DNA of 64,000 bases from the NCBI RefSeq assembly GCF_006345805.1, contig NW_021836130.1, positions 124,001 to 188,000 of the forward strand, read 5' to 3'. The position numbers and the translations under genes were made by a program. Positions within the stretch are counted from its first letter, which is position 1, and every line of letters begins with the position of its first letter. Under the pieces are notes generated by a model. It was not told the DNA's origin. It worked only from the letters and a program-made list of their open reading frames with translations, and made no database searches. The stretch is from Octopus sinensis. Its lineage: Eukaryota. Below are positions 17,801-56,579 of this stretch, one piece after another.

Positions 17801-18544
17801 AACTTGAATGTTCCAGCTCTCCCTCGAAGCTTGAAAAGTCCTCATACTTCCCCTCTCAAACAGGAATTGGGTGGGCTCACTCTTCAGGACTCGATACCGC
17901 TTAGATAATTGCATCGAGTCCGAATACATAAAATTTTTATTACTGAGGTCTTTTCACAGTTGGGAAAATCACGATCTTACTTTTCAATAAACAAAAATTG
18001 TGTTTCACTTGAATGTCAATCACAATTGAAGTGTTCACCCAGAATTTCACTTCAGCGTCGTAAATATCGATCGAACTGAATTTGTGTTGATAAATTTAGA
18101 TTTTTCAATGCCACACATTGTTCATATGTACAGATATATGCATCCTACAACTTCGTTATGTTTTCTCATGTAGTAACTGTTCAACATTCTGACCAATTAA
18201 TCAACGGATTTCTTGGCTTTTTACAGTAATACATGTTGATTCTTTTGGATCAAAAAATTAATTTCTATCCTAAACACTATATATAGCTTTGTATTTAGGC
18301 TGCTATTTCTCGTGGGAAGCTATTGAGAAGATTCAACATCTTCATTCTCCTTACTGTTAAAAAAACAGAATACTGATTTGGAATGAGTTTGTTGCTTCTG
18401 TAATAAAGTAAGTAATGTTTTGAATAATCTTCATGCAAACTTTGATGAATTTTATAGATTAGAAAAGAAATTCTCAACCTTCAAGAATTAAATCAATAAT
18501 TAAGAGTTTCTTTGTGGCTCCGACAAAAAATATTTTTACAAGCT

Positions 18545-19065
18545 TTCTACACGCACCGGAGGCACGGGTATCAGGTCGGCGCTGGATTTCGCACTTCCGG
18601 CATATCTGTTATCGCTTTTAAGCTGCAGTCATCTCGTCCAGAAAGTCCAAACTCACACTACTATCCTTGGACACAGTATTTGACGAGGCTTGCTTGCAGT
18701 AGAAGGAAGCTGAACTTTCGATCCAGGATGATGTCTCGAGACAGAATTGTTGGGACGCAATATTGTGCAAAGCTATTGTTGATGACCTAAAGCGGGGGTT
18801 GAACCAACACTGTTTTGTCTGTTTGCTTTCTGGGCCACAACACGGGAAGGGTGCATGGCTCCACGCATTTCCATACAGTTCATTCGGTACTTTTATGGAC
18901 GACGATTGTGAGATAATTGGTGTTCAGGAGATCGGGTCCCGCATGTCTGCTATCACAGGCGACGCCCGCGAATCAAAATGGTTTTTCGAGCGGATATTCC
19001 TCGCGATAGTACGCTCTAATTCTTTCTCGATCGCGTCGGCTTCCAGCCCATTAAGCTTTTATTAA
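18545..19065 (+). mobile_element. Internally deleted CRE remnant; copy 2 at about 36720-37244
   Basis: GAWLHAFP..GTFMDD and WFFERIFLAIVRSNSFSI resemble the C-terminus of ORF 22228-23961. Confidence 0.75.
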
Positions 19066-19143
19066 TTAACTTGTAGTTATTTACTTTGTTGCTTGTGGTT
19101 CATTGATTTCTAAAAAAAAATTTTCAAATTTATAAAATAAAAA

Positions 19144-19287
19144 TGTACCGAAGTACACGAAAAAAATACGCCGTAGGACAGCCCGTATGGAACCGACCAC
19201 ACTCGAAGGCGACCCAAAGTGCAATGGATGGCCAGCGGATGGCACATTTGCCTAATTGATAACAAACATGCACGACCAGGTAAGTAC
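19144..19287 (-). ncRNA. U1: U1 snRNA, about 144 nt, divergent
   Basis: 5' GUACUUACCUGG; helix H GUCGU/ACGGC; SL1 10-bp stem with 10-nt loop UAUCAAUUAG; SL2 loop AUUGCACUUU (U1A site); SL3; U-rich Sm position; terminal UGUAC-UUCG-GUACA. Confidence 0.92.
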
Positions 19288-22146
19288 TTAGCATATGCAC
19301 ACATTAGGAAATAGATACAACTAAATTATTAAAATGTATGGATTTTTAATTAGCTTTGAGGTATATACATTTAAATAGATTATCCAATTTTTTATTGAGT
19401 TTTAACATAAATGACAAATTAAGTAATTACAAATTTATTAAATTTATAAAAAGGTGATTTTTAAACACTACTTGTGATCGCTTAAATGTTTATATTCTCC
19501 ATTCGACTGTATTTATGACTGTGTTTATGACATTTACATTAGTTATGACATTTACATTAGTTAACCATTATTATAATTTTTAATAACCTCCGTATCAACG
19601 TGCTTTTAGGTAAGTTAGTTCTTATAAAGATTTTTTTGTCATTTGGATTTATATGCAATGATAAAAATAAACTAACCTCAATGTTTAATTTGCATGGTCT
19701 CTTGGCAAATAATTTTTCGTTTTGTTTTCTGAAAAACAATACAAGTATTATTTAGTTTTTATTATGTATCGTAGATCTAGTCAAATGATGTTCAGTGAAA
19801 CTTTTGTAATTACAGAGGAATCATTAAAATTTTCATATCTGATTTCAGAATTTATAGCAAAACAACTAAAACCTCACTATTGGCGAAAACTTGATAATCC
19901 CTGCTTGTCGTATTATTGCTCGGACTGTGTTTAGGCATAATATGAACAAATAATATTGAAGATATCTTTGTCAGATAACAGTTTCTTGTCGGATTGTGGT
20001 TTGTCGGAGAATATTGAAAATAGTGTCTCATTTTTATTAAAGAAACTCACTTGACGAATCTGAGGATATTTCGGAAATGGCACATTTATTGGCATATATA
20101 CGATTTGTTTATTTTGGGAAAATTACAGAACAATTCGTATTTTATAAGCCTCTTTTAACTACTACTCGAGCAATTGATATGTTCACAATATTAAACGATT
20201 ATTTCAATATCAATAATATTTCATTTGCCAATTGTATTGGTACATGTACAGATGGAGCCCCATATGTTTGGTCGTATTAATGGACTTGTTTCATCTGTTA
20301 AATTTAAAAATAATGAGATGATTTTATCACATTGTTTTTGCATCGAGAAATATTGACTGTAAAAACATTGCCTATGAATTTAAAATCTTTCTTGGATGAT
20401 ATTATCTAAATCAGTGGTTCTCAACGGTGGACGATTCTCCCCTTAGGGATGATCCGATTTATTCACCATGGGGGCGATAATTGAAATAATGAATAAATAT
20501 GATATTTTTGTTATAATTTATTTAAATTTCTAAGCGTGATTTCTAGTTATCTTTATGGGTCGTGCTCAAAAAAGTCAGAATGTATAAAGATGAATATATT
20601 TCTCTTGGCTTTATTAAAGATCCTCAAGATCCTAATAAACCACTTTGCCTTCAATGGGGTGCAATCTTTTGAATTAAGCAAAGAAATCGTCTCGTTTGAT
20701 TGAACATTTAAAGCGAAAATATCATAATTCAATTGGAAAAAGGAAGACTTTTTTCTAGAATTAAAAAAGAATTTTGAAAATAAAAACACCTTACAGTCAA
20801 TCTTTAATAAAAATATATCTCAAAATGTCTCTGGATTATCTTTTTCATATAAAGTTGCAGAGATAATTACAAAAACTGGTTTCATTATTATTTTAATTAT
20901 AAGTACTGCTCATTCGATTGCAGAAAATGTTATCCGTCCTTGTTTAAATTTATTTATAAACGATATCTTACAAAACGATTCTTCAAATATTATGAAGACT
21001 ATTCCATTAAGCAACGATAGCAGTTTTTACTTTATCTAAGATTTTCCCTTTTTTGTTAAATTCAGGACCAGAAACTATAGTGCGAACTGTATGCATGTTT
21101 TTCGAGTAGTAAAAGGCTGCACTAAGTTAGGTTCCCCATCTTGTAATTATTACTTCAGGTGGTAATTCTATATTGTCAAAAGATCTCTTCGAGATTTTTT
21201 TTGAGCAATGCAGTTTACATCGTGGCAATCAGATTATTAATATCCCCATAGTGTGTACTCATTTTTAAGGCACAATTATGTAAAAGATGAGCAAAACAAG
21301 TGATGTGTATAACATTGTTATACATAATTGACAATGTTTCTGCAGCAGCTATCATGTATGATGCAGCGTCGATAACCAATAAAACAAAATTAATCGTTTG
21401 ACGTTAAAATCCTTTAAAGTTTCATCGATTATCTGGCAAATAACTGAAGTATTACATATTTCAACAGAAATGCAATTTAATAGATAAATTTTCGATGGAT
21501 TACAAATAGTCCCCCCAAAAACATTCACAAATTTATTATTTGAAAATTGGGTTTCATCAACAATCAAAAATATTTTCAAATTTAAAATAAGATTTTTTAT
21601 TCGTTCAAAATTTAGAAGATAATTATCATATACCAATTTGCGACAATAGGTTTCTGATGGAACAGAAAATCCCAAATCGTCGAAAAACTTAGAAAAAAGA
21701 TTGTGACGAATCTTATAAAGAGGGATATTCACACCCGTCATCATCGAACCAATTTTAAACAAAAATCATTTGGAATTGCAATCAATTTCGATTGATGCAA
21801 GTCGTGTGTTTTACTTCTTTTTTATGCATTTCCGTCTGTCTGTGTTGTTCCACGTTAAAACTTTTTGACAAGTTTACCTAAACACAACAGAACTTGCAAG
21901 TAAGTCCCCCATTAGTACTTCTCGTAAATTCGTGCGGATATTTATTTAATATTTTAGAGAGTTTGAATTCATTAGATTTTTTTGATTTAGGCATCTATTA
22001 ATATACCTCTTTTATATAAAAACCTTTATCTCACTCAACAAAAAACCGATTATATCTCACGTTATAAAAAAATAATTCAAATATTATTATTCAAATATTT
22101 ATATTTAAAAAAAAATATTAATCTAATTCATTAAAATATACAAAAA

Positions 22147-24135
22147 TTTTTTTAAACAGATAAAAAATTATATTTGTAGAAATTTGAAAAGTTCTTATAT
22201 CGAAAGAGAAGAGATTGATTTGAGAAATCAATTGAGGAAGCCCGCTGCCTGTATGGAAAGCGAGTTCCCTCGGAGTATGGCTATTCCGATCCTTTGTCTT
22301 AGCCATACTCCTTCACGAGGATCATTCTTCTTTGTGGCGAGCATTCTTCCGAGTTCGCGCAAGAACTCGGCAGTCGCTGGGCCAACTGCTCCTGATGACT
22401 CAGCCGCAACAGGGGTGAATCTGTAGCGGTCCCCGAGGAAGGAATATTTTTTGGTTTTAAGGTTTTCCGCGATTGAGGCAGCTGCTCCAGGTGTCTGAAC
22501 CGATTTAAGGAGATTCGTGCTTGAGTAAGTATCGACGCAAGTTGCGTCCCAGACCAAAGATCGTCCGGAGTTGAAAGGGAAAAGAGTCATCCCGTCAGGT
22601 CTCTTTCCATCACCTCGATCGAGACCCACTGGTTCAAGCTGTGCTGGGAAGCCTGCAGCCTTCAGAGCTCTGACGATCACGTCGTTCAGAGCGGCGTGAC
22701 GTGGTCCTCTTCCGGCGGATCTCCTGCAGGATAGCGGGTGCAATCCCTTCGCATCGACCGTTTTCCCGCAGCGGCATCGGTGCTCCTGGCAAACGTCTAG
22801 TCCAAGTCTTTGTCCGATTCCAATCCTCAAAGAATCGTCGTCCAAAAAAGTCCCGAGATTTGGGCAAGGGATTGCACCAAGCCATGCTCCGCTCCCTCCA
22901 CTTGAGGCTGACACCAGGCAAGCAAGACGATGTTGATTTGCTTCTTTTTTAAGCCCTTCTGAAATTTTGGAGCAGACAATGTTATCCCAGTTTTTTTGTT
23001 TCGTTGTGTCTTCGGGGATTTTGAGTCCTGACCCGTTCCAATCCCGGCAAGCTTCATCAAATGACTCATTCCAGCGAAGTCCAATAGTGTGACGAAGGAC
23101 TTGCCGTGTCAAATGGTTGCAGCTTGAGAGAGACGAAAGATATGCCGGGTACGCGACCTCCAGCGCCGATCTTAGACCGACACCCCCAAATCCAGAGGGA
23201 AGCTTACATTGCTTCCAACCGAGTTCGTCGAAGCGGACGTTGATTAGTGACTCAACAGTTTGTTTGAGAGATTTGTCTATCGAAAGTAGACTGTCGTAAT
23301 GTTCGTGGCAGGGTGAACTTCGCAGTAGGTATAAAAGCTTGGGTAGTCCGATGTTGTTTCTCATCAGGAAGAAGGATGTGTGAGAGTCGAGGCATGACAA
23401 TCTTTTTGCGAGGCGAGATAATTCTTCATTTTTAGAAAGTAGATGGTTCCTGAGTTCGTCTTCACTGAGTGGACATCCAAGGAAATATAGTTTATCAACT
23501 GGCACAGTCGGGATCCCGGGAAGCAGTTCGTTGAAAAACTCCTTGATAGAGAGAAAGTCAGTGTTTGAGTATGAGACATTTATTAACTCTGATTTGTTAA
23601 TATTGATGTCCAATCCCAAGTGTTTTAATGCGGGAAGTGCTTGACGTAAAGAGTTGTATGTTTCCTCGAATGATCCTCCAATTGTGGCATCGTCGAGATA
23701 CCAGAGATTTAGTTGTGCGTCAATTGATCTCACAACATCATCAATTGTCAGGGCAAATAAGAGGGGTCCGAGCGGATCTCCCTGCTGGACACCAGTTTTT
23801 GATTTAATGATTTCATCATCAAAAACCAGAGACGTATCTTCTCCGTATGACAATTTAACAAGAGGGAAAAGCATGGGAGCCCTCTTCCAACACGTTTCCA
23901 TAATGGAGTCTCTTCTGAGAGAATTGAATGCATGGTTATGTCCAATTTGATTCCAATGCATTCGTTTGCAGTATTCTTCTGTGTAAAGAAACGCCTTGCT
24001 GCATGAACCGCTGCCTCACATCCGTTCTGGATACTAACACCCATTTGTTCTGGGAAGAACTCCGCACCGAGTGGGCGGCTCACGAGGGTCGAAGCAATCT
24101 TCGCTGCGAGTCTTCTGAAATAGTTTCCGACCGCA
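22147..24135 (-). mobile_element. 5'-truncated CRE-clade retrotransposon (RT, CCHC knuckle, restriction-like endonuclease), only in copy 2
   Basis: AVGNYFRRL, GVQQGDPLGP, WYLDD, CRCG..HPLSC, RH, RPDG and WDAT motifs; one frameshift near 23950; short A-tail at 22147-22153. Confidence 0.92.
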
Positions 24136-26697
24136 ATATGACCTATTAATAAGTGTTTAAATAGTTAAAAAATATAATTAAAATATTTAATTAATATAAA
24201 CAAACACAAAATGACCTTATTTTGTGATAAGCATTATATGACTTTTGGTTGCCCTAGTTATCAGATAAAAGTTCAATTTCGTTATCGAATACTCCTTTGA
24301 ATCCGGACGGTTTTTTCCCAAGCACATACATACTTTCTTTATTTCTTCAGCCACTGAATCCCAAACCACTGCAAGAGGATTTTTCATATTTACGTTCATA
24401 ATTTCTTTCTTAATTGCCATACAATAATTTTCCGAGTCTTCTCACATAAAAATAATTGTCCCACCGTAAACGGTTAGTACTGATTCACTTTATACTTTTT
24501 GAAAAACTTATTTAAAAACAGTTATGTTATAGAAAATAAAATTTCATTAAAAATAAAAAAGTCTCCCAAGAATAATTTGACCCACTGAATGTGGAATAAA
24601 AAATTATATAAACAAAGTCTAATTCTAATGATATCACAAAAATAATGAATTTCAATGATCATCGTATTTTACCTTCGAAGTATTCTTTCTTGGATGAATA
24701 TTAGGCTACATCGTGCGCAGTGGATTCTAAACAAATCTTAACAAAGAATGGAAATTTAAAATCGAATAAAGTAAAATATTACTTGATTGTTAGTAACTTG
24801 ATAAAAGATGTATAAAATTACCTTAGATTTTCATAAGAGTAGTCTATATATAAAAATAAAGTAATATATTTCTTAGGTTAATTTTTCAGTCAATTTTTAA
24901 AATTTTACGGTCAATTAAATTGACTTTTTAATAATAATGGTTCTGTGAACGTGCTTTTAATAATTAAAAGCACAAAACATGGTTTTAGCGGCTCAAAAAT
25001 TCGAAAACTTTAGATATTATAGTTAAAAGAGTCAATTATTAAATTATTTTAAAAAATACTAATGGATCCTTTTTTCAAAAAAACAATACTAGTCACATCT
25101 TTATTCAACAGATGCGCAAAAGAATAGGTAAGAATAAAAATACTCTTACTTCGTCTTTTAGTTAATGGTTATTACTTTATTATTTTAGTAAATTGATTTT
25201 ATTAAAAACTGATAGTTTATCTAGCTGACATTTTTCATAAAGTGAATGAAGTAAATATTAGCTTGCAAGGAAACAAAATTAGTTTAATAAATGTACAAAG
25301 AATTATCATGCCTTTTATTGAAAAATTACATATCTATGAAAACAACATTAAGAAAATGATGAGAAGGTGTGCAGTGGTCGGGAATTGCACGTTTTTAGTG
25401 GTGCATTATTATATCATTGTTCTATCATTGTATTTCATTCTTTCATCCATTCATTTTTTCATTAAACTGTATTTAATTGTATCAATCTATTCTTTTTTCA
25501 TTTGATTGTATTCCATTGTATCAATCTATTGTACCCTTTTCTCACTCCATGTCTCACTGTCTATCTTGTATTCATGTCAACGCCTGCATGAGACCGTCCC
25601 TTGCAAAAGTTGCCTCTTCTCCAACAAAAGGAAGAACGGTTTCAGATGCGCTATGCCATCAGTACTTCCATTTAAACTGCCTTAAAATCTCGAAAGAGGC
25701 CGCCATAAAGATTCCAAACTTGCTGTATCCATCATGCCTCTCATGCTCAAGTCACTCTCTCAAGCCTTCAATGGGGTGCGAAGGAACACCCTATGCGGCC
25801 AACGCTTCTCTGCCCAACCATTCCTCGCCAATCATTCCATCTGTTAAAGATTTCCTCTTTCCGGTTGCCCGGAACAAAAGAATTCGCAGAATTCCAGTCA
25901 TTTTCGCCGCTGATTCCTTATCAACTGCCAGGGACAAATTATATCCAACTGTCAGCAAAATTTTTGTTATAGAAGAATTTCTGATATTCTTGGTGTTTAA
26001 AATGAGGCTAAACAGCGACATATTTCAGAAAGACGTGACTTTGTTATCGCGAAGATGAGGTCCCTGGTCGAGTGCATCGGGATCACGTGAGTTTTGTTTA
26101 ATCTCTATCGTAATCTCGGCGGTTAAATAAAATAAAGACAATTCCCCATGTCATACTTCAAATGCAACAATGAAATGTTCATCCGCATATAAAACTAATT
26201 TATTCGATTGGCCAACACAATCTCCGGACATGAATCCAATTGAAAACATTTGGGCTAAAATAAAATATGAATTATTGAAGGAAAAAATTGAAAATTGAGA
26301 ACAAAATAACGAAGAACAAAAGGATAAAATACTCAAAATTTAAAATCAAAATCCAATGGAGTACATTAAAATTGATAAATTCGATGAAAAATCGTAGTTT
26401 AGAGTTATTCAAACCAAAAGGAAAACATATACCGTACTAATATGTTTTGACATTTTTCGGAATTTTTTGTCATATAAATTGTTTTTTTTGCTGTATTCAC
26501 AACATTTTAAAAAGTTAATAATAAAAATAACGATTCATCAAATGTCCGGATTTTTTTTATCGAGAGGGGAATATTGAAAAACAAAATATTTCAAAAGTGG
26601 AGCAACTAACAACAATGTCTTCGTTTAATTATAAAGCTGATGACAAATCAGATATTTGACAATGAATGTTGTCCTAGCACAATACAAAACATTGCTA

Positions 26698-28218
26698 CAG
26701 TACCGCTCAAATGTTTCGGACCACCCTATTTTTCTCAATTTCCAAGTCAATCCTAAATTATTTTTATACGGTTCTTTAGAGAAACTTATTAGATAAGCTT
26801 AAATACATTTATTCTATTCTAAAATTTTCTTTAAATATTTTTGTTTGGCGCCAATTGAATATAATTGATTTTTGACTCGATCATATGTTCCGGACCAGTT
26901 GCAATCATATGTTTCGAACCAGTTAAATCTCTTTAAATTTAAATAATTTTTGATTCAATTAAAAACAAAAGACTAATAAATAACAAATGCCGCGTGTTTC
27001 ACTGGTTGATCGGGTCGCTATCATCACTTTTTTTAAAGATGGAGCTTCACAAAGAGAAATTGCCGAAAAATTAAAAATATCCAAAACTGCTGTTCAAAGA
27101 ACAATTTCCAGATATTCATCCGTTGGACTATATTCCGACAGACCCAAATCTGGTCGACCGAGATTGTTATCCCCAAGATCTGAACGCAAATTAGTGAGAA
27201 TTTCGAAAGCAGACCCCACAAAAACGGCAAATCAAATTAAATTTGATATGAAATTAAATTCTATTGTAAGCACAAATACAATTAAAAGATGCCTACAAAG
27301 AAATAATTTGAATGGGCGAAAGCAATGCCCAAAACCAAGTCTTTCCATATGCCATAAAAAGGCTAGAAAAAATTGGTGCATTGAGAAATTAACTTGGAGC
27401 CAAAATGATTGGGGTAAAATTATTTTTAGTGATGAATGCAAAATAAATTTGCATTCAAACACAAAAAATTATGTTAGAAGGCCACCAAACTCTAGATTTG
27501 ACTAAAAATATTGTTTAAAAACACGAAAATTTTCTCCTAGCATTATGGTCTGGGGAGCTATTGCTGCAAATGGATGGAGAAACATTGTCTTATGCATTAA
27601 AAATGTTGATTCCGCAGAGTATCAGAGAATTATAAATGTTGGACTCGAAAATTTTTATGATGAGACCATGTATCTCCAGCAAGACGGCGCTCCTTCCCAT
27701 CGGTCCATGTCGACAATGAATTTTTTTCAAAGGAAACAAATAAAAATCTTAGAAACTTGGCCGAGCCAGTCACCCGAACTGAATATTATTGAAAATATGT
27801 GGTCGGTACTAAAACAAAAACTTTATGATCTGGAACCAAAAGATCTTCCAGAGCTCTGGAATTTGACCAAAAAAATTTGGTACGAGATTGATAATTCGTA
27901 CATTGAAAAATTATACAATTCACTTCCAGAGCGAATAAATGCTGTTATAACGAACAACGGAGGAAATATTAATTATTAACTTTTTATAAGTTTAATAAAT
28001 TTTCGGTTTTTTTTAAACTGGTCCGGAACATATGATCGAGTATAAAATCGATAATTTTAAAATTGCGCCAAACATGAATATCTGTCCAAGTTTTTAAAAT
28101 AGAATAAATGTGTTTAAGCTTATCTAATAAGTTTCTCTAAAGAACCGTATAAAAATAATTTAGGATTGACTTGGAAATTGAGAAAAATAGGGTGGTCCGA
28201 AACATTTGAGCGGTACTG
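26698..28218 (+). mobile_element. Full-length Tc1-family transposon (1521 bp) with IR/DR ends; transposase 26987-27979 has one in-frame TAA
   Basis: TA TSD (empty site attgcTAgaat at about 13130); TIR CAGTACCGCTCAAATGTTTCGGACCACC; GRPR, FSDE, VWG, QQDGAP and SPELNIIE motifs. Confidence 0.97.
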
Positions 28219-30024
28219 TAGAATAATAACACTAAGCAATGGATACTGTTACGAGAAAACACCATTAATAACTGATAGTACCCCGAATCAATCAAAATAT
28301 AACATACAGTGAATATATGAATATATGTAAAGCACAAAACAAACTGGAAATTGTACAGAACCAGTGCTTACGGATTTTAATGAAACGTGATAAAATGACG
28401 ACTACTTCGGAACTGAGAAAAGTGCTATACATTAAAAAATTAATGGACCATCTTACAGAAAGACAGCACATCTTCTTAACAATGGCAAGATATACCGGAG
28501 GTCCCCTTGAAGAGGAGTATCTTGCTTATGAAAAGTGTGTTAAAAAATTTTTAAAAACCATCCCCCTTTTGGACGTTGATTAAGAATTCGAGACAAGGAA
28601 ATGATAAAAGGAGACGCACTGACACCAAGATCACTTAATTAGACAACTACTATTCCTCTTCTGTGTTCCCGGGCAATAATATACGAATCAATATTTAGTA
28701 AAATAATGGCATGAGTCACAGCATATATATTTAACAGCGTGCTTATAATGGTTCTTGTGGTGTCGAAAACTCTTAATTTTGAAAATAATTTAATGGATTG
28801 GCCACAATACAACAATCCACTCATTCCCAATGGGACCCCATTTAAGCAATAGCATTCTTTAATTTTGAAACACATTCGATCGACAGCGATCATAAATATT
28901 ACAAGGAAACGAATTAAAAAATAGGCTTAAATTGTAAAAAATAAAATTATCGCACAAGAATCAAACGTATAAGTATACTGTTCAATAATTTAAAAATAAT
29001 TAACATAAACTCGATAAAATACAATGGATTCAGGGTCAAGTAGAGATGCAAGCAATTTGAAAATTTATCTTTAGGAGCATTAAAAGATGGATTAGTTCCA
29101 ATTGTGCACAAATGAATCTTTTGAAAAATATAAAGATTTGTATCAAAAAATCGTTTATAAATATGATAAAGAAAAACGTGAAATCATTAAAAAAACACAC
29201 ATTAAAATTTTCATTCAGATTAGGAAATTAAAATCGCGAAATACCACAAAAATGATGAAATTTCAGATAACTTAATCATTAAAAGAAATTAAATCACAAA
29301 TATTCCTTCTGAATCCAATTTAATAAAAAAAATAAAGCAGAACTAAATAATAGTAACAGTACAACAAAGTAAATCAAAAGCATGTCATAATTTATTAGGT
29401 TTTCCATTAAAAATTAAAATAATTTAACAATGAAAAATAGTTTTATAAATATTATTAAAATGATGACAAGAGACAATCGTTATGTTCTGAAAAAGTAGGT
29501 CACTCGCGTATGATGAAATTTTTTTGTATAAAACATTATTTTGTCAGCCAATCATTAAAATTATTCGTTCAGTTCCATAAATATTAGTTTATTTGTTCAA
29601 ATTTCAGATTTGGCGCTTTTTGATGAACAGATAAATCGAAAAGATCTGGAGAGATTCCACTGACATTTAAATTGTGTTTTAATAAAAATAAAGTTTATTT
29701 TTTATTAATATTTGTTTAATTATCTTAATTTTTAATGAAAAACCTAATAAATTACGACACATGTGATCACGTGTATGTTTTACTTTGTTGTATTCTTTTT
29801 ATTATTGTTCTTTACTTTATTTTTAATGTAATTGGATTCAGAAGGAATATTTGTTTATGTAGTTTCTTTTAATTATTAAATTATCTGAAATTTCATCATT
29901 TTGTGATATTTTTTCATTTTATTCCATTAATCTGTCTCTTCTACATATTTTGAACTTTCTAAACACAATTATCTTTATTCATTCAATTCTCTTTTTTTTT
30001 GTTTCATATTTTCCGATTATATTA

Positions 30025-31821
30025 TGTCACAGTCCGAATAAAATACACGCCGAATAATTACATTCTTTAATTTTACTGAAATTAAAAATTTACACAACAA
30101 AATGTTTAATTATTATTAAAAATATGATTTTTAATGTAAAATTCATTAACCTTTTTTACTAATTTATATAAACAAAACCAACCACACTCAATTTACGCAG
30201 TTAACTTATACGTTTGAATATTGTTATTCCATTTTAGGTTATCCTAATAAAATTTTCATATAAAATTTATCGTTAATTTAAATAAAAAATTATTTTTATT
30301 ATGGATTTATGAAAATTAATCAATTTTATCTAATCGAGAAATATGAATTCCGTGTAACCGCTCACCGTCCTCCTTTTCGATAACATAGAGATCATTTCTT
30401 CGCTCGACAACAATATACTTATTAACATCAAGTCCATCGTACAGCGGATACTGCCGAACATTGGCATCGTTGTCCTGTCTAAAAATTAATTTGACGCTTG
30501 AGACCTTAAAAGCACAGTCGTTCCGACATTGATATTTTCTTCGTCGTATCTCCATTTTCTTTTTTCAATCATTTTTTCGCCAGCAATAATTAAGTTTTCT
30601 AATGCACTTTCTCGTGCCTCTGATAATCCAGTTGAATCATAGGCTAAAAGTTGCTCCATTCCCCCTTCATCAATCCTTCCAGGATTTTCAACACCCATGA
30701 ATATATAAAAAGGGATTTTTTTGTCGAAGAATGAATGCTGTTATTGTAATCATACACGATGTCCTTTATGCATTCGCGATATCGTCCAAAACAATTTTGA
30801 GAAGAACTTGCCGACGATATCCAGCGTTTTATGCTTTGATTAAATCTACAAATCGATTTTAAATCATTAACCTTTCGACTTGCCCTTGTACCCAAGGAGC
30901 ACGAGGCCTCCCACGTACATGTTTTATACCATATTTCGTACATAGAGCATCCATTTGCGAATTGCAAAATTCCCTTCCATTATCAGTGTGTAGAATAAGC
31001 GGAGGCCCGACATAATAAAAAATTCTTTGGAATAAATCTGCGATTTCTTCAGAAGATTTGGTCACCGACAGTTCAAGCATTACATATTTGGAAAAAGAAT
31101 CCACAATTACCAAAATCTATTTATTAACATTAAATTCATACCCAGCTAAAGCCATCATTCAACGCCGAATATCTTCTGAGGTCAATTAAATCCGCAATGT
31201 ATCTGTCCCTACATCTCCTTGCAATGATTGGCGTAATCGGAGGCTTCGTAGACAATAATTTTTTCGACTAAGAATATTTACTAAAAGGAGTTATTACCTG
31301 ACAGAAAGCACAATTCGAAATCACCTTAGAGATTTCTTCTCTATTCAATCCATAATAGAGATTTCTTAATTTCGAAAAAAGCCGGTCTCTCCCAAAGTGG
31401 TTATAGTTATGTTCCGCCTAAATTTTATTTATTAAGTTGGACCTCAACGCACTTAAGCTTTAATTCGATTTCATCTTCACAGAAAAAACGCAATTTAAGC
31501 CCATTTTTTCGAAAATATGTTTTTCCATTTTCAAAATGGAAATTCTTTCCCAATTTTGTGAGCCTGTATCGCTCATGCCGCTCGATTGACGATGTATCAA
31601 AGTTGGAGTCTTTCATTTCTTTGATTTTGTCCAGTGTTTCCTTAAATAATCTCACTACACGCATGTTTCACGCTTTTTTAAATAAAAAATAATAATGTGA
31701 TTCTACTAAAATAAATAATCAATTATTGATTTTTTTCATACTAATTTTTAGATTTCTAATTTTTTCAGCCATTTGTGACAAGTGTAGATTATTCGGCGTG
31801 TATTTTATTCGGACTGTCACA
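30025..31821 (-). mobile_element. Full-length Ginger-type DNA transposon (1797 bp), only in copy 2
   Basis: TIR TGT(C/G)ACAGTCCGAATAAAATACACGCCGAATAAT; 5-bp TSD TATTA; empty site at about 14933-14937. Confidence 0.93.
30316..31664 (-). CDS. Six-exon retroviral-type integrase/transposase (HHCC plus DD35E), about 405 aa once one missing base is restored
   Basis: GT-AG introns 31418-31442, 31268-31297, 31117-31141, 30846-30871 and 30479-30504 join H..NHFGRDR, CAFC, YIADLID, HTDNGREF and QGQVERFN. Confidence 0.88.
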
Positions 31822-31852
31822 TATTATGTTCATTATCTTTATTTTTACTAAT

Positions 31853-33153
31853 CAGGGTTGTTAAAAATCATGATTTTTTTCAAAAAAATCAAAAAAATCT
31901 GATTTTTTTGATTTAATCACGATTTTTTTGATTTAAATCAGATTTTTTTGAATTAAATGATCTTTATTTCAAAACGACCCTTTCCACCTGGCTTATCAGA
32001 GAACCTCTCTCTTTGTACATAAACACTGAAAAACGGCCACGCAGAACGATCTATCGTAGTTCCTTATGTCCACCGGGATCACTTAACTAGTTTGCATTAC
32101 GCTTTCTTTCTTTGTGGTCTTCGGGTTAATAAATAAAAAAATATTCAAAGCGAACTAAAATAAAAAACAAAAACAATGGAAATCGTTTTTATTTATTTAA
32201 AAGCTTGTAAATGGAAACAAGTTTGGCTGCTTTTTCGATCCCCAGCCTATTGCGTACATTTGAATGTAGAAATCCGAATGTTGAAAAGATTCTTTCTATT
32301 CCACCTGTCGAAGCAACTGCTCCAAGAATTTTTTTGCATAGTGAAATTACTTGTGAAGGTAACTGGTATGAATTCGACTCCCACCAAGCTATAGGTGATA
32401 CTTTACTCAATAAATTCGGAGCAAACATGTATTGTTTAAATGGATCAGCTTTTGCTCTGAAATTAATCAGAGTCGGAAGTGCATATTCATAATTTTGAGC
32501 ACAATAACTCAATGCAATGTCAATCTCAACATTTGAAAGAGATTTCCCACTACATGTCGGGTCGATCAAATTCGCAAGTAAGTGGAAAGGTGTTAATGCT
32601 TGTTTTGCTCGAATTCTCACTTTTCCTAAAATATTCGTACATCCATTGTCAATATATGTCTGTTCAAGTTCTTTCCAAATTTCTACAGCATGACTAATCG
32701 TGGTAGAATCATTCTGAATTTTATCTAAAGCGACAGCAATTGGTTTAATAAGCATCAGATATTCTTCAACGCGTCGTTTTAGGGAAATATTAGATGAAGT
32801 CGTCGTAGTTACGAAATTGATTAATGAATGGTCCTTCATCCTTGGAGGAAATTCGCTTTCAGGTCTCGGCATATTTTCAGGGATATCAATATTACTTCGA
32901 CATAATAAATGATGCTGCCTCATCCGAGATACAAGACCTTGTATGTCCTTCCCACAATTACGACATCTGGCACGGCTTCCGGTCTTTCCAGGAATAATAC
33001 GTTTATCAAAATAAGCCCACAAAGAATCACGCTTTCTTCCAGACATTTAAAAAAATTTAAATGATTTTTTTGATTTTTTGATTTTTTTTAATGATTTAAA
33101 TCATTGATTTTTATTGTTGATTAAAATCAAATGATTTAAATCTAACAACCCTG
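31853..33153 (-). mobile_element. Internally deleted hAT (1301 bp) with an open 285-aa ORF at 32189-33046, only in copy 2
   Basis: TIR CAGGGTTGTTA; 8-bp TSD TTACTAAT; BED finger (LWAYF..CRNC..H) fused to hATC (WW..ASTGGIERIFS..RNRL). Confidence 0.93.
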
Positions 33154-36100
33154 TTACTAATAGTACACGTAGTTTCAAATTTTTCTGAAACTGCTTACTT
33201 ATTTATATTCAGTTCGTCATATAATGGGTATCTACGGTTAACAGGGTTATCATCCCTATCGTGTTTCAGCAGCACTGTATCTCCTATTATATTTCCACTT
33301 ACGACGTTTTTCATTTTCTTACCAGCTTTAACAAGGTTTTCATGCACTTTTTTCTCAGTATTTTTATTGTCATTCTTAAAATAATTTGAATTTGACTCAT
33401 CACTTAGTTCTGCATTTGTTCCGTCGAACATATACAAACGGGATGGACTTTTCCAGCTCCCTTTCGAAACTGGAAAAGTCTTCAGACTTCCCCCACCCAA
33501 GCAGGAATTGGGTGGGCTCCTTCTTCAGGACTCGATACCGCCTAGACGGCTGTATCGAGTCCAAAATCCCTAAGATTTTAACGACTGATGCCTTTCCACA
33601 GGTGGGAAAGACCTCTAGCCGTGCTACCACGCCGAAGGTAATTCTACCACCGGCGCGGGCGGTCTTCCTCTGGTGTGCATTCACCTCTGGAGACGAGTTA
33701 GCAGTACCTAAACTGTTAGAGACCGTACGGCAAGCGACACGTTTAGGTTTCCCCACGGTACGCCAGCCGTCCTCACGGACTACCTTTGTAAGTTGCACAT
33801 CAGATCCTGTTCGCGATCGTTTTTCATCACTTTTTTCTCCTTTAATATTCGGATTTCTGTGCACCACAGGAAACACAACCATTCTCGCACGCTACAATCG
33901 ATTGGTCGTGGACACAATGACGAGCTTGTGTAGCCCGTTTACATCCTTCAGATACAATTTCCCCTCAATTATTGTGAAATTCTCTGCCTTTTTTTTCAGT
34001 CGATACTTCTTATGCTTGTTAAGATCGACATTCTCATTTTCAAGTATGGATCAGTCTTTCAATAGATAGGTTCTTGAATAAATCTTTTTTAACTTTCTTG
34101 TTATTTCTTCAGCTGATTTGGTTTTTGCAAATTTTACCACTGCAAATTGTCCATTTTCCAGTTTCAGTTTGTTACGAGTCTTTATAAGGGCGTTTACTTC
34201 GTGGCTTTAACTTTGGGAGAAATTTGGTATAATTCCTTGTGGAATGAATTTTTTGGAGGTCAAGATGATAAGTGCATTGAGATAATTGACTGCTGCGTCA
34301 GTCGAACGAAAGTTGATAATGTCGAAATCATTCAATGATTTTTCTAGAGCGAGACTGTAGTCGTCCCAGAAAGCTCTTTTGTAATTCGTATAACAACGCC
34401 GTTGAATGTCGATGTTGGGCTTTAGGACATTCTCAATAATAATCGGGTTGTGATCAAATTAGGTCTTAAATGACCTTCCAAGAAGTAACAGGGGCCAGAA
34501 TTGGAGTACACAGCGAGATGTCAGGAGAAGAAATTGCGTAGCCTTTTCTTGACGGTGTTCTGGTGTGTGATGAGGGATTGTTGAGGATAACTAAATTATT
34601 AAATTGGTCTAATAGTAGAGATCCTCTTGAATTAAGAGATTGATTTTTTACCATATCGGGATCTTTGCGCTCATATCACCACAAATAATGCACCAACAAT
34701 CAGTCCAAATTTGTAAAAGGAGTCGATTATAAAAACCAACTATGACTTATTCAAAAAAAGATTCATCCACAATTGCCGTCAAGATTTAAATATCTCCTTA
34801 GATCCACTAAATCTGCAATATACCGATCTCTAGGTTTTCTTGCAATTTTGGGGTGATAGTTGGTTTTGTTGCCATGAAATTTTTCGATCAACACTGATTA
34901 AGAACATTACTTGGCAATAGACACATTTTGCTATCACACTACAAATTTCTTCTCTTGAATATATTTGGTCTCTTAGTAACGAGAGCATTCTGTCTCTACC
35001 AAATCAAAAACAACGTTCCAGATTTCTTTGTTCTACTTTTCGCTATTTATGAGTCTTGAAACCTTCTATTGATCTATAAAAACCCGACCTCGTTGAAGAA
35101 CGAGTCAGTCTCCTTTCCCGCGGCTCCAGAGCGATTGGCGTAATACGCAAACAGTCCGCGGGGGAAGAATACTTTTGTAGTTTCATCCTTTCGGCGTGGT
35201 TTGCAGCCGAACAAGGATTCGCAGCGGAGGAATCGATTCTCGACCTTGAGAAGGCATTCACAACGGTAACATTTCATACGAGGGCTTTCCCGAACGAGTA
35301 CGGGAATATTGTCAAATTACTAATCTGTTTATAAACACAATTATTTATTGAAAAAATCGAATAAAGTTATTTGTATAGTTTTTTAATTAATTTTTGTAAA
35401 TCATTTGAAATGTTTTTCAAATTTTTTTACAGTATTTTGTTATATTTTGAGAAAAGCAATTCGAACAAGAACTTAATTTATGACAATTTGAATTCCATCA
35501 AATAAAGTGATTGGGCTAATATCGTAGCTCTCATCGATTTGGCCATCTTCTGCATTAAGCATGATATCTTCAACAGTATATTCTTCTTGAAACAGTGCAA
35601 TAATTTTATTGTCATCAATGACTTTTTGTATTTGAAGCATATCTTCTTCAATCATAATTTGGTCTAGCTCATTATTGTTTGATTCAATAATTTGATATGG
35701 GGACAACTCTTCTTCAGCATAAGACTCATAAATACCTTGAATGATTCCAACTTTTTTGAAACAATTACTAATAGTTTCTTGTTTCACACTTGCCCAAGCT
35801 TCGTGAAGTAACAACATAGTGTGTCTAAGATTAACAAAAAAATCTAGTGATTGATCAAGCGAGTTCATATAATCAACCACTAACTTTTTTTTCTGTAATG
35901 ATGCTTTAGATTTTTTATTATTCCTGCATCCATTGGTTAAAGATGAGCAGTTGAGTTCTTTGGAAGCCTTATAACTTGAATGTTTCCAGCTCTCCCTCGA
36001 AGCTTGAAAAGTCCTCATACTTCCCCTCTCAAACAGGAATTGGGTGGGCTCACTCTTCAGGACTCGATACCGCTTAGATAATTGCATCGAGTCCAGAATA

Positions 36101-37321
36101 CATAAAATTTTTATTACTGAGGTCTTTTCACAGTTGGGAAAATCACGATCTTACTTTTCAATAAACAAAAATTGTGTTTCACTTGAATGTCAATCACAAT
36201 TGAAGTGTTCACCCAGAATTTCACTTCAGCGTCGTAAATATCGATCGAACTGAATTTGTGTTGATAAATTTAGATTTTTCAATGCCACACATTGTTCATA
36301 TGTACAGATATATGCATCCTACAACTTCGTTATGTTTTCTCATGTAGTAACTGTTCAACATTCTGACCAATTAATCAACGGATTTCTTGGCTTTTTTACA
36401 GTAATTACATGTTGATTCTTTTGGATCAAAAAATTAATTTCTATCCTAAACACTATATATAGCTTTGTATTTAGGCTGCTATTTCTCGTGGGAAGCTATT
36501 GAGAAGATTCAACATCTTCATTCTCCTTACTGTTAAAAAAACAGAATACTGATTTGGAATGAGTTTTGTTTGCTTCTGTAATAAAGTAAGTAATGTTTTG
36601 AATAATCTTCATGCAAACTTTGATGAATTTTTATAGATTAGAAAAGAAATTCTCAACCTTCAAGAATTAAATCAATAATTAAGAGTTTCTTTGTGGCTCC
36701 GACAAAAAATATTTTTACAAGCTTTCTACACGCACCGGAGGCACGGGTATCAGGTCGGCGCTGGATTTCGCACTTCCGGCATATCTGTTATCGCTTTTAA
36801 GCTGCAGTCATCTCGTCCAGAAAGTCCAAACTCACACTACTATCCTTGGACACAGTATTTGACGAGGCTTGCTTGCAGTAGAAGGAAGCTGAACTTTCGA
36901 TCCAGGATGATGTCTCGAGACAGAATTGTTGGGACGCAATATTGTGCAAAGCTATTGTTGATGACCTAAAGCGGGGGTTGAACCAACACTGTTTTGTCTG
37001 TTTGCTTTCTGGGCCACAACACGGGAAGGGTGCATGGCTCCACGCATTTCCATACAGTTCATTCGGTACTTTTATGGACGACGATTGTGAGATAATTGGT
37101 GTTCAGGAGATCGGGTCCCGCATGTCTGCTATCACAGGCGACGCCCGCGAATCAAAATGGTTTTTCGAGCGGATATTCCTCGCGATAGTACGCTCTAATT
37201 CTTTCTCGATCGCGTCGGCTTCCCGCCCATTAAGCTTTTATTAATTAACTTGTAGTTATTTACTTTGTTGCTTGTGGTTCATTGATTTCTAAAAAAAATT
37301 TTCAAATTTATAAAATAAAAA

Positions 37322-37465
37322 TGTACCGAAGTACACGAAAAAAATACGCCGTAGGACAGCCCGTATGGAACCGACCACACTCGAAGGCGACCCAAAGTGC
37401 AATGGATGGCCAGCGGATGGCACATTTGCCTAATTGATAACAAACATGCACGACCAGGTAAGTAC
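37322..37465 (-). ncRNA. U1: U1 snRNA, second copy
   Basis: Appears identical to 19144-19287, inside duplication copy 2. Confidence 0.92.
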
Positions 37466-37899
37466 TTAGCATATGCACACATTAGGAAATAGATACAACT
37501 AAATTATTAAAATGTATGGATTTTTAATTAGCTTTGAGGTATATACATTTAAATAGATTATCCAATTTTTTATTGAGTTTTAACATAAATGACAAATTAA
37601 GTAATTACAAATTTATTAAATTTATAAAAAGGTGATTTTTAAACACTACTTGTGATCGCTTAAATGTTTATATTCTCCATTCGACTGTATTTATGACTGT
37701 GTTTATGACATTTACATTAGTTATGACATTTACATTAGTTAACCATTATTTATTAATTTTTTAATAACCTCCGTATCAACGTGCTTTTAGGTAAGTTAGT
37801 TCTTATAAAGATTTTTTTTGTCATTTGGATTTATATGCAATGATAAAAATAAACTAACCTCAATGTTTAATTTGCATGGTCTTCTTGGCAAATAATTTT

Positions 37900-40210
37900 T
37901 CGTTTTTTGTTTTCTGAAAAACAATACAAGTATTATTTAGTTTTTATTATGTATCGTAGATCTAGTCAAATGATGTTCAGTGAAACTTTTGTAATTACAG
38001 AGGAATCATTAAAATTTTCATATCTGATTTCAGAATTTATAGCAAAACAACTAAAACCTCACTATTGGCGAAAACTTGATAATCCCTGCTTGTCGTATTA
38101 TTGCTCGGACTGTGTTTAGGCATAATATGAACAAATAATATTGAAGATATCTTTGTCAGATAACAGTTTCTTGTCGGATTTGTGGTTTGTCGGAGAATAT
38201 TGAAAATAGTGTCTCATTTTTTATTAAAGAAACTCACTTGACGAATCTGAGGATATTTCGGAAATGGCACATTTATTGGCATATATACGATTTGTTTATT
38301 TTGGGAAAATTACAGAACAATTCGTATTTTATAAGCCTCTTTTAACTACTACTCGAGCAATTGATATGTTCACAATATTAAACGATTATTTCAATATCAA
38401 TAATATTTCATTTGCCAATTGTATTGGTACATGTACAGATGGAGCCCCATATGTTTGGTCGTATTAATGGACTTGTTTCATCTGTTAAATTTAAAAATAA
38501 TGAGATGATTTTATCACATTGTTTTTTGCATCGAGAAATATTGACTGTAAAAACATTGCCTATGAATTTAAAATCTTTCTTGGATGATATTATCTAAATC
38601 AGTGGTTCTCAACGGTGGACGATTCTCCCCTTAGGGATGATCCGATTTATTTCACCATGGGGGCGATAATTGAAATAATGAATAAATATGATATTTTTGT
38701 TATAATTTATTTAAATTTCTAAGCGTGATTTCTAGTTATCTTTATGGGTCGTGCTCAAAAAAGTCAGAATGTATAAAGATGAATATATTTCTCTTGGCTT
38801 TATTAAAGATCCTCAAGATCCTAATAAACCACTTTGCCTTCAATGGGGTGCAATCTTTTTGAATTAAGCAAAGAAATCGTCTCGTTTGATTGAACATTTA
38901 AAGCGAAAATATCATAATTCAATTGGAAAAAAGGAAGACTTTTTTCTAGAATTAAAAAAGAATTTTGAAAATAAAAACACCTTACAGTCAATCTTTAATA
39001 AAAATATATCTCAAAATGTCTCTGGATTATCTTTTTCATATAAAGTTGCAGAGATAATTACAAAAACTGGTTTCATTATTATTTTAATTATAAGTACTGC
39101 TCATTCGATTGCAGAAAATGTTATCCGTCCTTGTTTAAATTTATTTATAAACGATATCTTACAAAACGATTCTTCAAATATTATGAAGACTATTCCATTA
39201 AGCAACGACACCCCACGAAAAAGAATTGATGAAATTTCTAATGAAATTGAACAATCCTTAATTTTACTTCTCAGGGAACGCAAGTTTTCAGTCCAATTTG
39301 ACGAATCAGTTATCGTTGATAACCAGTCAATTTTTATGGCATATGTAAGGTATTACTTTTTATAAATACTTTTTATACAGATATTTTGATGATGATTTTA
39401 TTCTGCAAGAAGAGTTAGAATCTTTAATCACGGATACCAAAGGATTGTCAATATTCAAAATGTTTCAATCTTATTCTTAAATAATATTCCATTGGAACAT
39501 ATTTTATCGTGCGCAACTGATGGCTATGGTTGGAAAATATCGTGGTTTTTTAGAAAATTTAATTTGAGTAATAGAAAATTTGGAAAATTCGATTTTTATG
39601 ACCACACTTTTGATGACAACGATTTGAAAATTTATGAATTTCATTTCGAATCTTTGGAACAAGATTTGAAAAAAGATTTGAAGATTTAATTAATTTAAAC
39701 TTTTCTGATTGGATGATTAATCCTTGGGTGCCCATTCATTATGATTCTGACGATGAATGTCAACAAGAGTTAATAGAACTAAAAAACGACCAAAAACTCA
39801 AAATAAAATTTAAAACGAAAACTAGAGTCAATTCTGGACAGAAAAATCTACAAAAATGAAATTCCCGAAATTATGAAAAAAATGATGCCAGTAATTTTAT
39901 TTTTTCCTACATCATACTGCGTAGAGCAAGGATTCAGCACTCTGAATAGTATGATCGGAAAAAAGAAACAAACTAAACATAGAAAAAAGAGAAGACATTA
40001 GAATTACACTTACGAAAAGAAGTATAAATTTTGAAAAACTTGTCAATTTCATCAACCGCGAGGATCTCATTAAAAATCTTATTTTTTTAATAAAAAAATA
40101 TTTCTAATATACAAAAATAAAGGTTGTGAACCACTGATCTAAATGACTAATAATATAAAAAGTCTCGCATTTACCTCTATTTGCGATGAAATGGGGGCAA
40201 ACTTTACAAA
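37900..40210 (+). mobile_element. Degenerate Buster/ZBED5-like hAT interrupted by a second hAT; copy 1 part at about 19720-20411
   Basis: IAKQLKPH, LDES, LLAYIRF, CTDGAP and HCFLHRE motifs; frame resumes after 40144 (ICDEMGA). Confidence 0.8.
38600..40136 (+). mobile_element. Buster-type hAT, 1537 bp, degenerate; truncated copy at 20412-21017
   Basis: TIR CAGTGGTTCTCAAC / GTTGTGAACCACTG; 8-bp TSD ATCTAAAT with central TA; PLSNDT, QFDES and FPTSYCVEQGFS motifs. Confidence 0.9.
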
Positions 40211-53929: not shown

Positions 53930-55496
53930 ATGGTCGACGCATTCCGTGAATATCTGCGATTTCCAACAGTCCAACCAGATCCTGATTATGGTGACATTCT
54001 ATTAAATAAAAAGCATTTTTAGGTCCTGCGGTTAAATTTCTCTCTGATTTAGCCCTTGGAATAGGGCTTCAGCCTACCGTTTTGGAATTTTATCCAACAA
54101 AGCTGATTCTTGTAATAAAGTGGCAAGGGAACGACCCTGAAGCGGAATCAATTTTACTGAATTCTCACATGGACGTTGTTCCAGTGTACAGAGTATTTAT
54201 GTGTAAATTCAAATATTTTAAGGAGAAGTGGACATTTGATCCATTTGGTGCAGAAATGGACAATAATGGGAACATCTATGCACGTGGAAGTCAGGTTTAA
54301 ATATATTATAAATGTGGTTAGGATATGAAATGTGTCACAATTCAGTATTTTTTAATTTACTGACGTCAGATATTTAGAAGCGATCAGAAAACTCATCAAA
54401 GAAGGTTATGTTCCGCGCCGAACTATATACGTCAGCGTAGTACCAGGTTTATAATTTTTATTTTATTGTTATCAGATGAGGAAATCGGTGGACTGACCGG
54501 AATGGCGACGTTTGTGAAGAGTGAGTATTTTAAATCTCTCAACATTGGTTTTGCCCTTGATGAAGGTGTTTTATTATGTCACTAAGAGTTGTAGGAATTG
54601 CATCCCCAAATGCAACGTTTTCAGTTTTTTATGGCGAAAGGACTGTAATGCGTTTGATTTTTTTGACTTGAATGATTTATAGCATTCAAATTGACGTGTC
54701 ATGGAAACCCAGGCCATGGGTCACTTTTTTTGGAGAACACTGCAGGAGAGAAGATGGTAATAAATTTTAGGTTTTAAATTATAGGCAAACTGTCTCGCTG
54801 CAGTACAATCTTTCCGCAATAATGAAAGACGAAAACTTGAAGAGTTGTTATGAAACTGTTAATTTTAGAAATCCCGGGATGAAACTGGGAGATGTAACAA
54901 CTGTCAATTTAACTGTTCTTGAAGGCGGCGTACAGACAAACGTTATCCCGGCCACTCTTTCTGCCAGTTTTTTTTCTTATTTAAGCTATTTGAAGCATTT
55001 GATTTACGATTACCTTCAACCACAAGTTTTACTGAAATTTGTGATCAGGTTTTTCCTGAAGCTGAAAAAAATGGGATTTTTATCAATAAAATTTATGTTT
55101 TATTTGAATTTTTGTAATATTTGACAGGATAGTGAACAAATTCAACCTTCGTCCCTTGATTCCCCGTTTTGTAAATCGTTTTTTTCTGCTATTGATGAAC
55201 TGTGAGTTTTAATCAATAATTGAGTTAAATTATATTTTAATTTTAAATTTTGATAAAAAACTTTAGTGAACTGGAAACACAGGTCATGATTTTTCCGGCA
55301 GGAACTGATGCAAGATATCTTCGTGGAGTACATTATTAAATCTAACAATACATAGACTGGACTTCCAGTTCTCAACTTTTCCCCGATGAATAACACCCCT
55401 GTGCTTCCTCATGACCATGATGAGTATCTAAATGTTGATACGTTTTTGCGAGGAATTAATATTTATCAGATCATTCTCCAAAAAATATCAACTTAA
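53930..55496 (+). CDS. ACY1: Aminoacylase-1 (M20 family), about 12 micro-introns
   Basis: [61 protein letters not shown] and HDHDEYL; introns include 53991-54022, 54193-54222 and 54295-54321. Confidence 0.95.
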
Positions 55497-56579
55497 TCTA
55501 ATCTAATTCTAATTTGATTATCTCGATTTTTCTAACGATAATTTAACATTTAATTTTTCTAATATTACCCACAAATGATTAATTAATGATGAAAAGAATT
55601 TGACCATTATCATTTTTCTATTTAATGTATTTTTATTTAAGAAAAAAAATTTCTACAGATATTTAGTTCATTTGAAAAATACGTCTATGAGTCAGCAAAT
55701 GTAGTTTTTTATTACAAAAATTGGTTTTTATTTAATCTATTTTATCATTAACAAAATGTAGATTAACAAATTGCCAATTAAATCATTAATAACTCTTAGA
55801 ATAATGGTCGGAAAATTAATTATCAATTGTATTAAAATTGTATAATGATTGACTATTAGATTATTTCAAATAATTTCTTTTTGGGATAAATCATAAAATC
55901 AAAAACAAAATTAGATGCTAGCTAGGTAAGTAGCTAAGAGAATAATCGAGAGCCTAAGAGTCAGCTTAACAACCCGGGGTGCGTATTTCCGTTGAGCACA
56001 GCGACCGAGAGTTGTCAAAAAAGCCAGCTTGTTCAAGTAACTTAATAGAAATCATTTAAAAATTAAGAAACTTCATAATTCTGATAAAATTGGTACACCC
56101 GTTTATCACAGTCAGATTGAAATTATTGATTTTAAAGTATATAATGCTTATCTATCATACCATTGTTAAATGTATGAAAAGGAAATAAACGACAGTTTAT
56201 GTAGAATTAACGTGAGGCGACGAGTCCTGTGAATGGGAATCTCCTACCTGCCGGATCTCAGCGTGGCGTAATGTGGTTTACCATGTTAGTTGGAACTTCA
56301 ATTGGATATGGAAACGCTCAGAGGGCACCTAATCCCTACCGAAAAAGAACTTGTAGAAATCTGACCCCAAGGGAAATCTTTTTCACAGGTCGATCGAACC
56401 TTTCCGAAGGATCTCCGTCTCTTGCGAAGTGCATCGAGGATCATGGGAATTATAATTAACAAGTTCACCCTGGTCCTTTGGTCATTAATAAATTTCTCAA
56501 AAAATTATAATTGAAACATATTGAAATTATTTATGTAGATCATGCTCACTAAATAAGTTTTTTCAATTCCTTTTGAGCT

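Follow-up and report, generated by a model that had tools for sequence, protein, structure and literature searches.

We consider it very probable that positions 30025-31821 of the DNA analysed here, a 64,000-nt stretch of Octopus sinensis contig NW_021836130.1 (the window), hold a multi-copy, recently inserted Ginger-type transposon with five introns of 25-30 nt, probably excised by the ordinary spliceosome of a host that is most likely a dicyemid. Ginger introns, intron turnover in transposases and dicyemid micro-introns are each known, but their combination was not found in print; a literature search that took in a minority of subscription papers returned no account of dicyemid transposases with micro-introns, nor of such a co-assembly.

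The element, its integrase gene and its copies

An earlier reading of the window from its letters and reading frames (the sequence-only reading) had described a Ginger transposon with terminal inverted repeats (TIRs), a 5-bp target site duplication (TSD) and an empty site. All three were found, the TIRs matching at 32/33 positions and the empty site lying at 14933-14937 (Table 1). The segment 13130-14940 is 97.6 % identical to the left flank at 28219-30027 and continues straight into right-flank sequence at its single TATTA. Assignment to Ginger is borne out by Pfam matches to H2C2 and rve, TGT..ACA ends and the 5-bp TSD. The integrase gene is the sole gene within the 1797 nt, which contain no LTR, gag or RT. 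Two other classes were considered and rejected, a Ty3/Gypsy LTR retrotransposon on the absence of LTRs and gag-pol and on the 5-bp TSD, and a Polinton on a length of 1797 nt with an integrase alone, no DNA polymerase and a TSD of 5 rather than 6 bp.

Table 1 Coordinates of the transposon, its integrase gene and related features within the window
Feature	Position	Strand	Basis or remark
Ginger-type DNA transposon, whole, 1797 nt	30025..31821	-	Ends, flanks, copies
5′ TIR, 33 nt, start TGTGA	31789..31821	.	32/33 matching
3′ TIR, 33 nt, start TGTCA	30025..30057	.	Inverted-repeat comparison
Left TSD, TATTA, 5 bp	30020..30024	+	Flank sequence
Right TSD, TATTA, 5 bp	31822..31826	+	Flank sequence
Empty site, one TATTA, within duplicate segment	14933..14937	+	Duplicate comparison
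Exon 1, aa 1-74, ATG 31664	31443..31664	-	Reading frame
Intron 1, 25 nt, after aa 74, phase 0	31418..31442	-	Spliced aligner; site common to other families
Exon 2, aa 75-114, HHCC finger H77, H81, C110, C113	31298..31417	-	Pfam Integrase_H2C2, E 2.2e-6
Intron 2, 30 nt, after aa 114, phase 0	31268..31297	-	Spliced aligner; shared site, missing in L057/L060 and L051 families
Exon 3, aa 115-156, putative first catalytic D = D140 (from motif position)	31142..31267	-	Reading frame
Intron 3, 25 nt, after aa 156, phase 0	31117..31141	-	Spliced aligner; shared site
Exon 4, aa 157-237, rve core, D201-x35-E237	30872..31116	-	Pfam rve, E 8.8e-16
Intron 4, 26 nt, after aa 237, phase 2	30846..30871	-	Spliced aligner; shared site
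Exon 5, one base short in A run 30716-30722	30505..30845	-	Copies and short-read contig
Intron 5, 26 nt, after aa 351, phase 2	30479..30504	-	Only in focal family
Exon 6 to stop, C-terminal integrase domain; OTU and Ulp1 absent, no GPY/F by eye	30316..30478	-	Pfam and reading by eye
Host aminoacylase-1-like gene, intron control	53931..55497	+	Introns of 30, 27, 25, 29 nt at 54193, 54295, 54345, 54447

From its ATG at 31664 to the stop at 30316 the gene spans 1349 nt, as the sequence-only reading had it, and the five GT-AG introns of 25, 30, 25, 26 and 26 nt proposed there stand at exactly the coordinates given. The spliced product is 405 aa long with an X at a frame break and contains no other stop. 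Retroviral integrases are the closest solved structures to the family profile. Exons 5 and 6 gave no Pfam match except ASCH at E 0.12, the protein ending at aa 405. Judged by eye rather than by alignment to named references, GPY/F is not visible in the focal protein and its N-terminus is without YP; a YPYY-like stretch is present, also by eye, in the intronless relative P0011. That the gene had been overlooked by annotation proved right, the public models P0022 and P0001 being fragments that read into introns.

A single missing base in the coding sequence had likewise been recognised, but it falls in the A run at 30716-30722 and not in the adjoining GGG run near 30712, where it had been placed, and the family sequence reads KKIPF, not KKSPF. 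The A run has 8 A in 11 and 7 A in 8 of the 19 readable distinct copies, a count made without the duplicate loci L027, L036, L069 and L142. Contigs of short-read run X1, inspected at the break, agree with the missing base, the dominant contig (1872/1938 of the depth) carrying the extra base. An assembly slip probably explains the break, but at the window locus a rare variant could have been dropped from the contigs. With 1-bp deletions so abundant in the assembly, every copy can be judged intact or dead only tentatively.

At least 15 full-length loci of 96-100 % identity are present in assembly G000 (40 candidates scored of 259) along with internally deleted copies. One of them, L002, differs at 1/1797 bases and lies in different flanks. 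These values support the young family that had been proposed, and from its copies the focal family appears to have moved recently. An exact 5-bp TSD was found at 14/19 loci with both ends (12/17 once two same-flank pairs were removed) and a 6-bp TSD at 0/19 of them; 65/70 TSD bases are A or T (93 % AT). Diverged copies (80-94 %) have substitutions spread evenly across codon positions, introns and splice sites, and codon-position tests on them detected no within-family selection, a pattern of neutral decay as in dead copies.

Evidence for the introns and their removal

Introns 1-4 were placed at the exact proposed coordinates by a spliced aligner whose profile was drawn from outside homologues only and was blind to the proposed introns; intron 5 lies beyond its reach. 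The spliced alignment scored 470, whereas none of 20 shuffles exceeded 36.5; with introns forbidden the score was 338 with 3 frameshifts. Homologues coding across the introns, which the sequence-only reading had named as counter-evidence, were sought among 41 outside proteins. Insertions of ≥ 5 aa at junctions 1-5 occur in 1/23, 1/30, 0/35, 0/36 and 0/11 spanning proteins, and the distant P0046 is the only outside protein to have one. The sizes are of host format, as had been suggested, the neighbouring aminoacylase-1-like gene having introns of 30, 27, 25 and 29 nt. Those cited are homology-supported only, by outside homologues, and longer ‘introns’ in this gene derived from P0047 and P0048 were set aside, both proteins being fragmentary.

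To follow intron removal we used contigs, not reads, from 7 of 12 listed public runs (X1-X4 and X6-X8); none of the public runs is recorded as RNA, and X2 and X6 are guessed to be DNA. Intron 1 is gone from X2 record 7 and intron 3 from X2 record 4, with 25 gaps and 0 other letters in each case, while X3 record 8 and X4 record 14 each show 26 gaps in place of intron 5 and a loose end at its junction occurs in X7. Removal of intron 2 is seen as an 8-letter loose end in X7 only, and that of intron 4 as a 26-gap record of X4 (record 19) with its position inferred from bin depth, so that intron loss is clean for three introns and weak for introns 2 and 4. Spliced junctions predicted by the sequence-only reading are in this way represented by intron-less contigs in X2, X3, X4 and X7, runs that are not on record as RNA. 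Spliced junction 20-mers were found in 0/30 genomic loci and no genomic copy is intronless; the X2 contig without intron 1 shares a 31-nt deletion with locus L007, where the genomic DNA retains intron 1. Introns are retained in X2 records 3 and 6, X6 record 8, a 14.7-depth piece of X7 at 31325-31448 and all eight X8 pieces listed. A 21-nt deletion at intron 3 in one X7 contig does not correspond to splicing.

An origin of the introns as decay insertions or assembly artefacts of a dead element would find room in an assembly rich in indels and in the broken frame of the window copy. We give it next to no weight however, and regard it as refuted by the recurrence of the same sites and phases, with unrelated intron sequences, in families ~50 % identical, and by short-read contigs that contain the introns next to others that are precisely without them.

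The host organism

The host of the element is a second, co-assembled organism and not the main 2.7-Gb animal. Among the Ginger matches listed in G000 (2.7 Gb), none falls on C1-C30, contigs with positions of up to 5-199 Mb. Two types of 18S are present, one of 1667 nt and GC 0.45 on contig C1618 and one of ~2600 nt and GC 0.63 found mostly on chromosome-scale contigs. C1618 also carries a Tc1 element matching that of the window at 99.5 % over 1533 nt. The window, the Ginger loci and C1618 have a dinucleotide signature in common (CpG 1.0, TpA 0.7), the values for control loci (n = 21) being 0.70 and 0.92. Contig C9061 holds copy L008 of the element and, 5 kb off, a Pax6 gene whose paired box is interrupted by a 26-nt phase-0 intron and whose homeobox is split; a second Pax6, on C8955, is without the micro-intron. 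Host genes are intron-dense, and TAA and TAG serve as stops.

Further divergent Pax genes were observed on unplaced contigs (L121 on C12762, L125 on C8591 and L130 on C9300), two of them with paired-box introns of 27 and 26 nt. More generally the unplaced contigs of G000 (C12601, C9061, C1618, C12459-C12605 and others) appear to belong to a second animal genome, likely that of a dicyemid, whose genes are publicly annotated as octopus.

The second organism is most likely a dicyemid, judging from several lines taken together. Dicyemids reside in cephalopod kidneys and are reported to have introns of 26-27 nt (PMC2222250, PMC6543705), introns this short were described among 51 animals only in myxobolids and Dicyema (PMC13644364), and the organism has its own 18S, Pax6 and signature. 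The intron phases described for Dicyema Pax6 (PMC2222250) are like those of the gene on C9061. No protein match bears a dicyemid label, the assignment thus standing without a named sequence match, and a COX1 search of the assembly found no second mitochondrial COI and hence none of a dicyemid. Primers given in PMC12953835 and the 18S primers of PMC7710466 are universal, neither source yielding 18S primers specific to dicyemids. It is very unlikely that the host is some other cephalopod parasite with tiny introns, such as an apostome ciliate, apicomplexan, microsporidian or myxozoan, or the octopus itself. The closest named relatives of the integrase are microsporidian, proteins of the parasite-type contigs are labelled octopus in public databases and chromidinids are reported from renal organ samples (PMC12953835). 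However a contig bearing the focal family also has a Pax6 that contains both paired box and homeobox and shows Dicyema-like phases, the stop codons and intron-dense genes are as described above, 18S, Pax6 and dinucleotide signature of octopus type are all separate, and the 51-animal survey limits such introns to myxobolids and Dicyema (PMC13644364).

Intron history, known relatives and a proposed working

We spliced-aligned 60 further loci obtained from three protein searches. Sites 74/0, 114/0, 156/0 and 237/2 (aa/phase) recur in families that share 48-64 % identity with the focal protein, the introns at these four shared sites being unrelated in sequence and 22-31 nt long, and these families form one clade (99/94 in the first tree, 98 in the second). 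The first tree left out 6 short outside proteins and 10 others (5 integrases of this assembly and 5 aminoacylases) and the second 7 more rows, all long-branch. The sequence-only reading had seen a family adapted to host splicing. The host format stands, but since four sites are common to families ~50 % identical they are old and do not reflect recent adaptation of the focal family, in which only intron 5 is family-specific. The site of intron 5 (351/2) is missing in 5/5 readable sister families (the L059 group, L057/L060, L061, L052 and L063), and site 114 is precisely missing in L057/L060 and L051. A site at 314/0, with a 27-nt intron containing in-frame stops, is confined to the L052 family; this intron has a 6-nt repeat in common with the following exon, which would fit intron birth by break repair.

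In a second clade, nested among microsporidian-labelled proteins and with the intronless L031/L044 as its sister, the only intron stands at 135/2; L036-type elements are intronless. Intronless families of the same genome include some with intact ends and open frames of 434-471 aa. Complete members of all three types measure 1.8-2.2 kb and have TGT..ACA ends, with a 5-bp TSD in 5/7 of those with ends found. The 33 distinct introns in Ginger cores have a mean length of 25.3 nt and 78 % AT, and 21/33 start GTA; two or three of the shortest are possibly misplaced. Aligner calls of 36-60 nt at aa 279-318 were rejected as introns, being absorbed insertions in loci with open frames, and the missing calls of L016 and ‘none’ of L085 were not scored as losses, these copies being degenerate. 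A clade of all own-genome rows was rejected (p-AU 6e-8), as was one of all intron-bearing rows (p-AU 0.00016), in tests made on a quick tree with groups chosen after the first tree had been seen. One own-genome Ginger lineage lies among Dictyocoela-labelled proteins with Nosema and Vairimorpha near, a placement that hints at exchange between parasites.

The most parsimonious history has three gains and at least one loss, and intron 5 was likely gained within the focal family. We lean slightly towards a history in which Ginger entered the parasite, one lineage perhaps through horizontal exchange with microsporidia, and gained introns at least three times (351, 314, 135), each born at ~22-27 nt. 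Reverse-transcriptase-mediated intron loss prefers 3′ introns, and 351 and 314 are the most 3′ sites, which would favour their loss. A distinctly less probable history would make all sites ancestral, the introns having shrunk with the host genome and the patchy 351, 314 and 135 reflecting repeated loss. Precise loss does occur, as at site 114 in L057/L060 and L051, and loss is described as dominant in CACTA transposases (PMC4158355). The proteins nearest the intron-rich clade are unnamed, and the four shared sites could be of either polarity. On the tree however 351 would need about four losses against one gain, 135 is limited to a clade with the intronless L031/L044 as sister and lies inside microsporidian-labelled proteins, and a single clade of intron-bearing rows was rejected.

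If the repeated gains are real, ultra-short animal introns would arise de novo at final size and not by shrinkage alone, transposase families would provide a dated series of micro-intron births, and the whole record would sit in a parasite genome publicly labelled octopus. PMC13644364 names as open questions how introns < 30 nt are recognised and whether they originate solely through shrinkage. One genome holding transposase families with no intron, one intron and four to five introns would offer polarised candidate gains and a comparison of old with new micro-introns. Annotation splits such genes into octopus-labelled fragments (P0001, P0022), by which a co-assembled parasite genome and its elements are misread, and DNA transposons of micro-intron genomes are probably undercounted.

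We propose that the host U2 spliceosome, which has been argued to handle such introns with only GTa and AG signals (PMC13644364), would remove the five introns from the integrase transcript, and that the spliced mRNA would yield an HHCC/DD35E transposase of 406 aa able to bind the TGT..ACA ends and insert with a 5-bp stagger at AT-rich sites. Retention of introns 1 to 5 leads to a stop at aa 80, 124, 158, 242 and 356, respectively. Because any retained intron truncates the enzyme, the introns would be ordinary passengers held in host format, and only elements with host-format introns could move, which amounts to a filter and not to evidence of regulation. Four sites would stem from the ancestor of one Ginger clade, with intron 5 gained here and two more sites in other lineages.

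The P element has an intron that is spliced in the germline only. Comparable regulation here, in which splicing would gate transposition and a transcript keeping intron 4 or 5 would encode a shortened protein that possibly acts as a repressor, seems unlikely to us. It could draw on the retention stops, on the coexistence of retained and spliced contigs (X4 record 19 being apparently without intron 4 and with intron 3) and on the uncommon GTCC and GTCT with which introns 1 and 5 begin. The retained contigs would however fit DNA, pre-mRNA or read-through of dead copies equally well, and the presence of intact intronless families in the same genome argues that introns are not needed for restraining Ginger.

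By comparison with published descriptions, the integrase tree containing no named Ginger1, Ginger2 or TDD, the element appears nearest to Ginger2/Tdd, and by its TSD to TDD-4/5. It resembles Ginger2/Tdd (TDD-4, TDD-5) in its TGTNR ends, its H2C2 and DDE transposase, its AT-rich target and its lack of OTU or Ulp1, and TDD-4/5 in its 5-bp TSD (PMC2836005); GPY/F, which Ginger2/Tdd lack, appears absent by eye. It differs from them in its length of 1.8 kb (theirs being 2.8-6.7 kb) and in its 33-nt TIR (45-297 in the published table, about 50-180 bp expected for the group; PMC2836005), and from animal Ginger2 in a TSD of 5 rather than 4 bp (PMC2836005; PMC6839031 says 6 bp). Set beside its five introns of 25-30 nt, Ginger2 intron counts are absent from the table in PMC2836005. 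KRBA2 and SCAND3 derive from Ginger2 (PMC3575427), and close relatives of the focal integrase are labelled KRBA2-like or SCAND3-like. Ginger1 likewise has a Gypsy-like integrase, TGT ends and, in some families, 1-4 spliceosomal introns, but its CCGG/CCGT 4-bp TSD and OTU/Ulp1 tails are lacking from the focal element, in which its GPY/F motif is not visible either (PMC2836005). GingerRoot, in contrast, has a 6-bp GC-rich TSD and mostly TA termini (PMC6839031), 0/19 focal loci having a 6-bp TSD.

The introns resemble the micro-introns of dicyemid hosts, with a mean of 26.2 or median of 27 nt and GTa and AG signals (PMC2222250, PMC6543705, PMC6736024, PMC13644364), although those reports concern introns of host genes, some at conserved ancestral positions, and the focal introns lie in a transposase. 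The term ‘transpos’ is absent from the main text of PMC6736024 and PMC6543705. CACTA transposases similarly conserve intron boundaries across families, with loss and occasional gain, but these are plant elements in which loss is dominant and one putative gain is described, whereas here three sites are lineage-specific and already 22-27 nt long (PMC4158355).

A number of other elements were observed in the window. A Buster-like hAT transposase remnant at 38868-39700, read by eye, contains a 31-nt GT-AG intron at 39350-39380 (+) and a possible one of 25 nt at 39070-39094; micro-introns may be general in DNA transposons of its genome. A 715-nt non-autonomous element at 9875-10589 has ends matching the TIRs of the intronless Ginger family L037/L038, and a distant degenerate Ginger at 51340-52868 (-) has TGTGAC ends, TAATA on both sides, an inserted retroelement fragment and a possible 29-nt intron. 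Disrupted Ginger remnants of L059 type with an intron near aa 114 lie at 14955-16800 and 33180-35003, and those of other Ginger families at 13927-14184 and 29016-29147. The Tc1-like element at 26695-28221 has 206-nt TIRs, no intron and one in-frame stop, and its site is empty at 13130; its 99.5 % copy on C1618 sits 1.3 kb from the short 18S. The segments 8672-21017 and 21016-39208 form a mosaic of duplicates of 97-99.6 % identity with elements present or absent, reflecting duplication, haplotypes or mis-assembly. Two inverted arrays of a 21-nt tandem repeat at 50214-50987 are possibly the ends of a foldback-type element.
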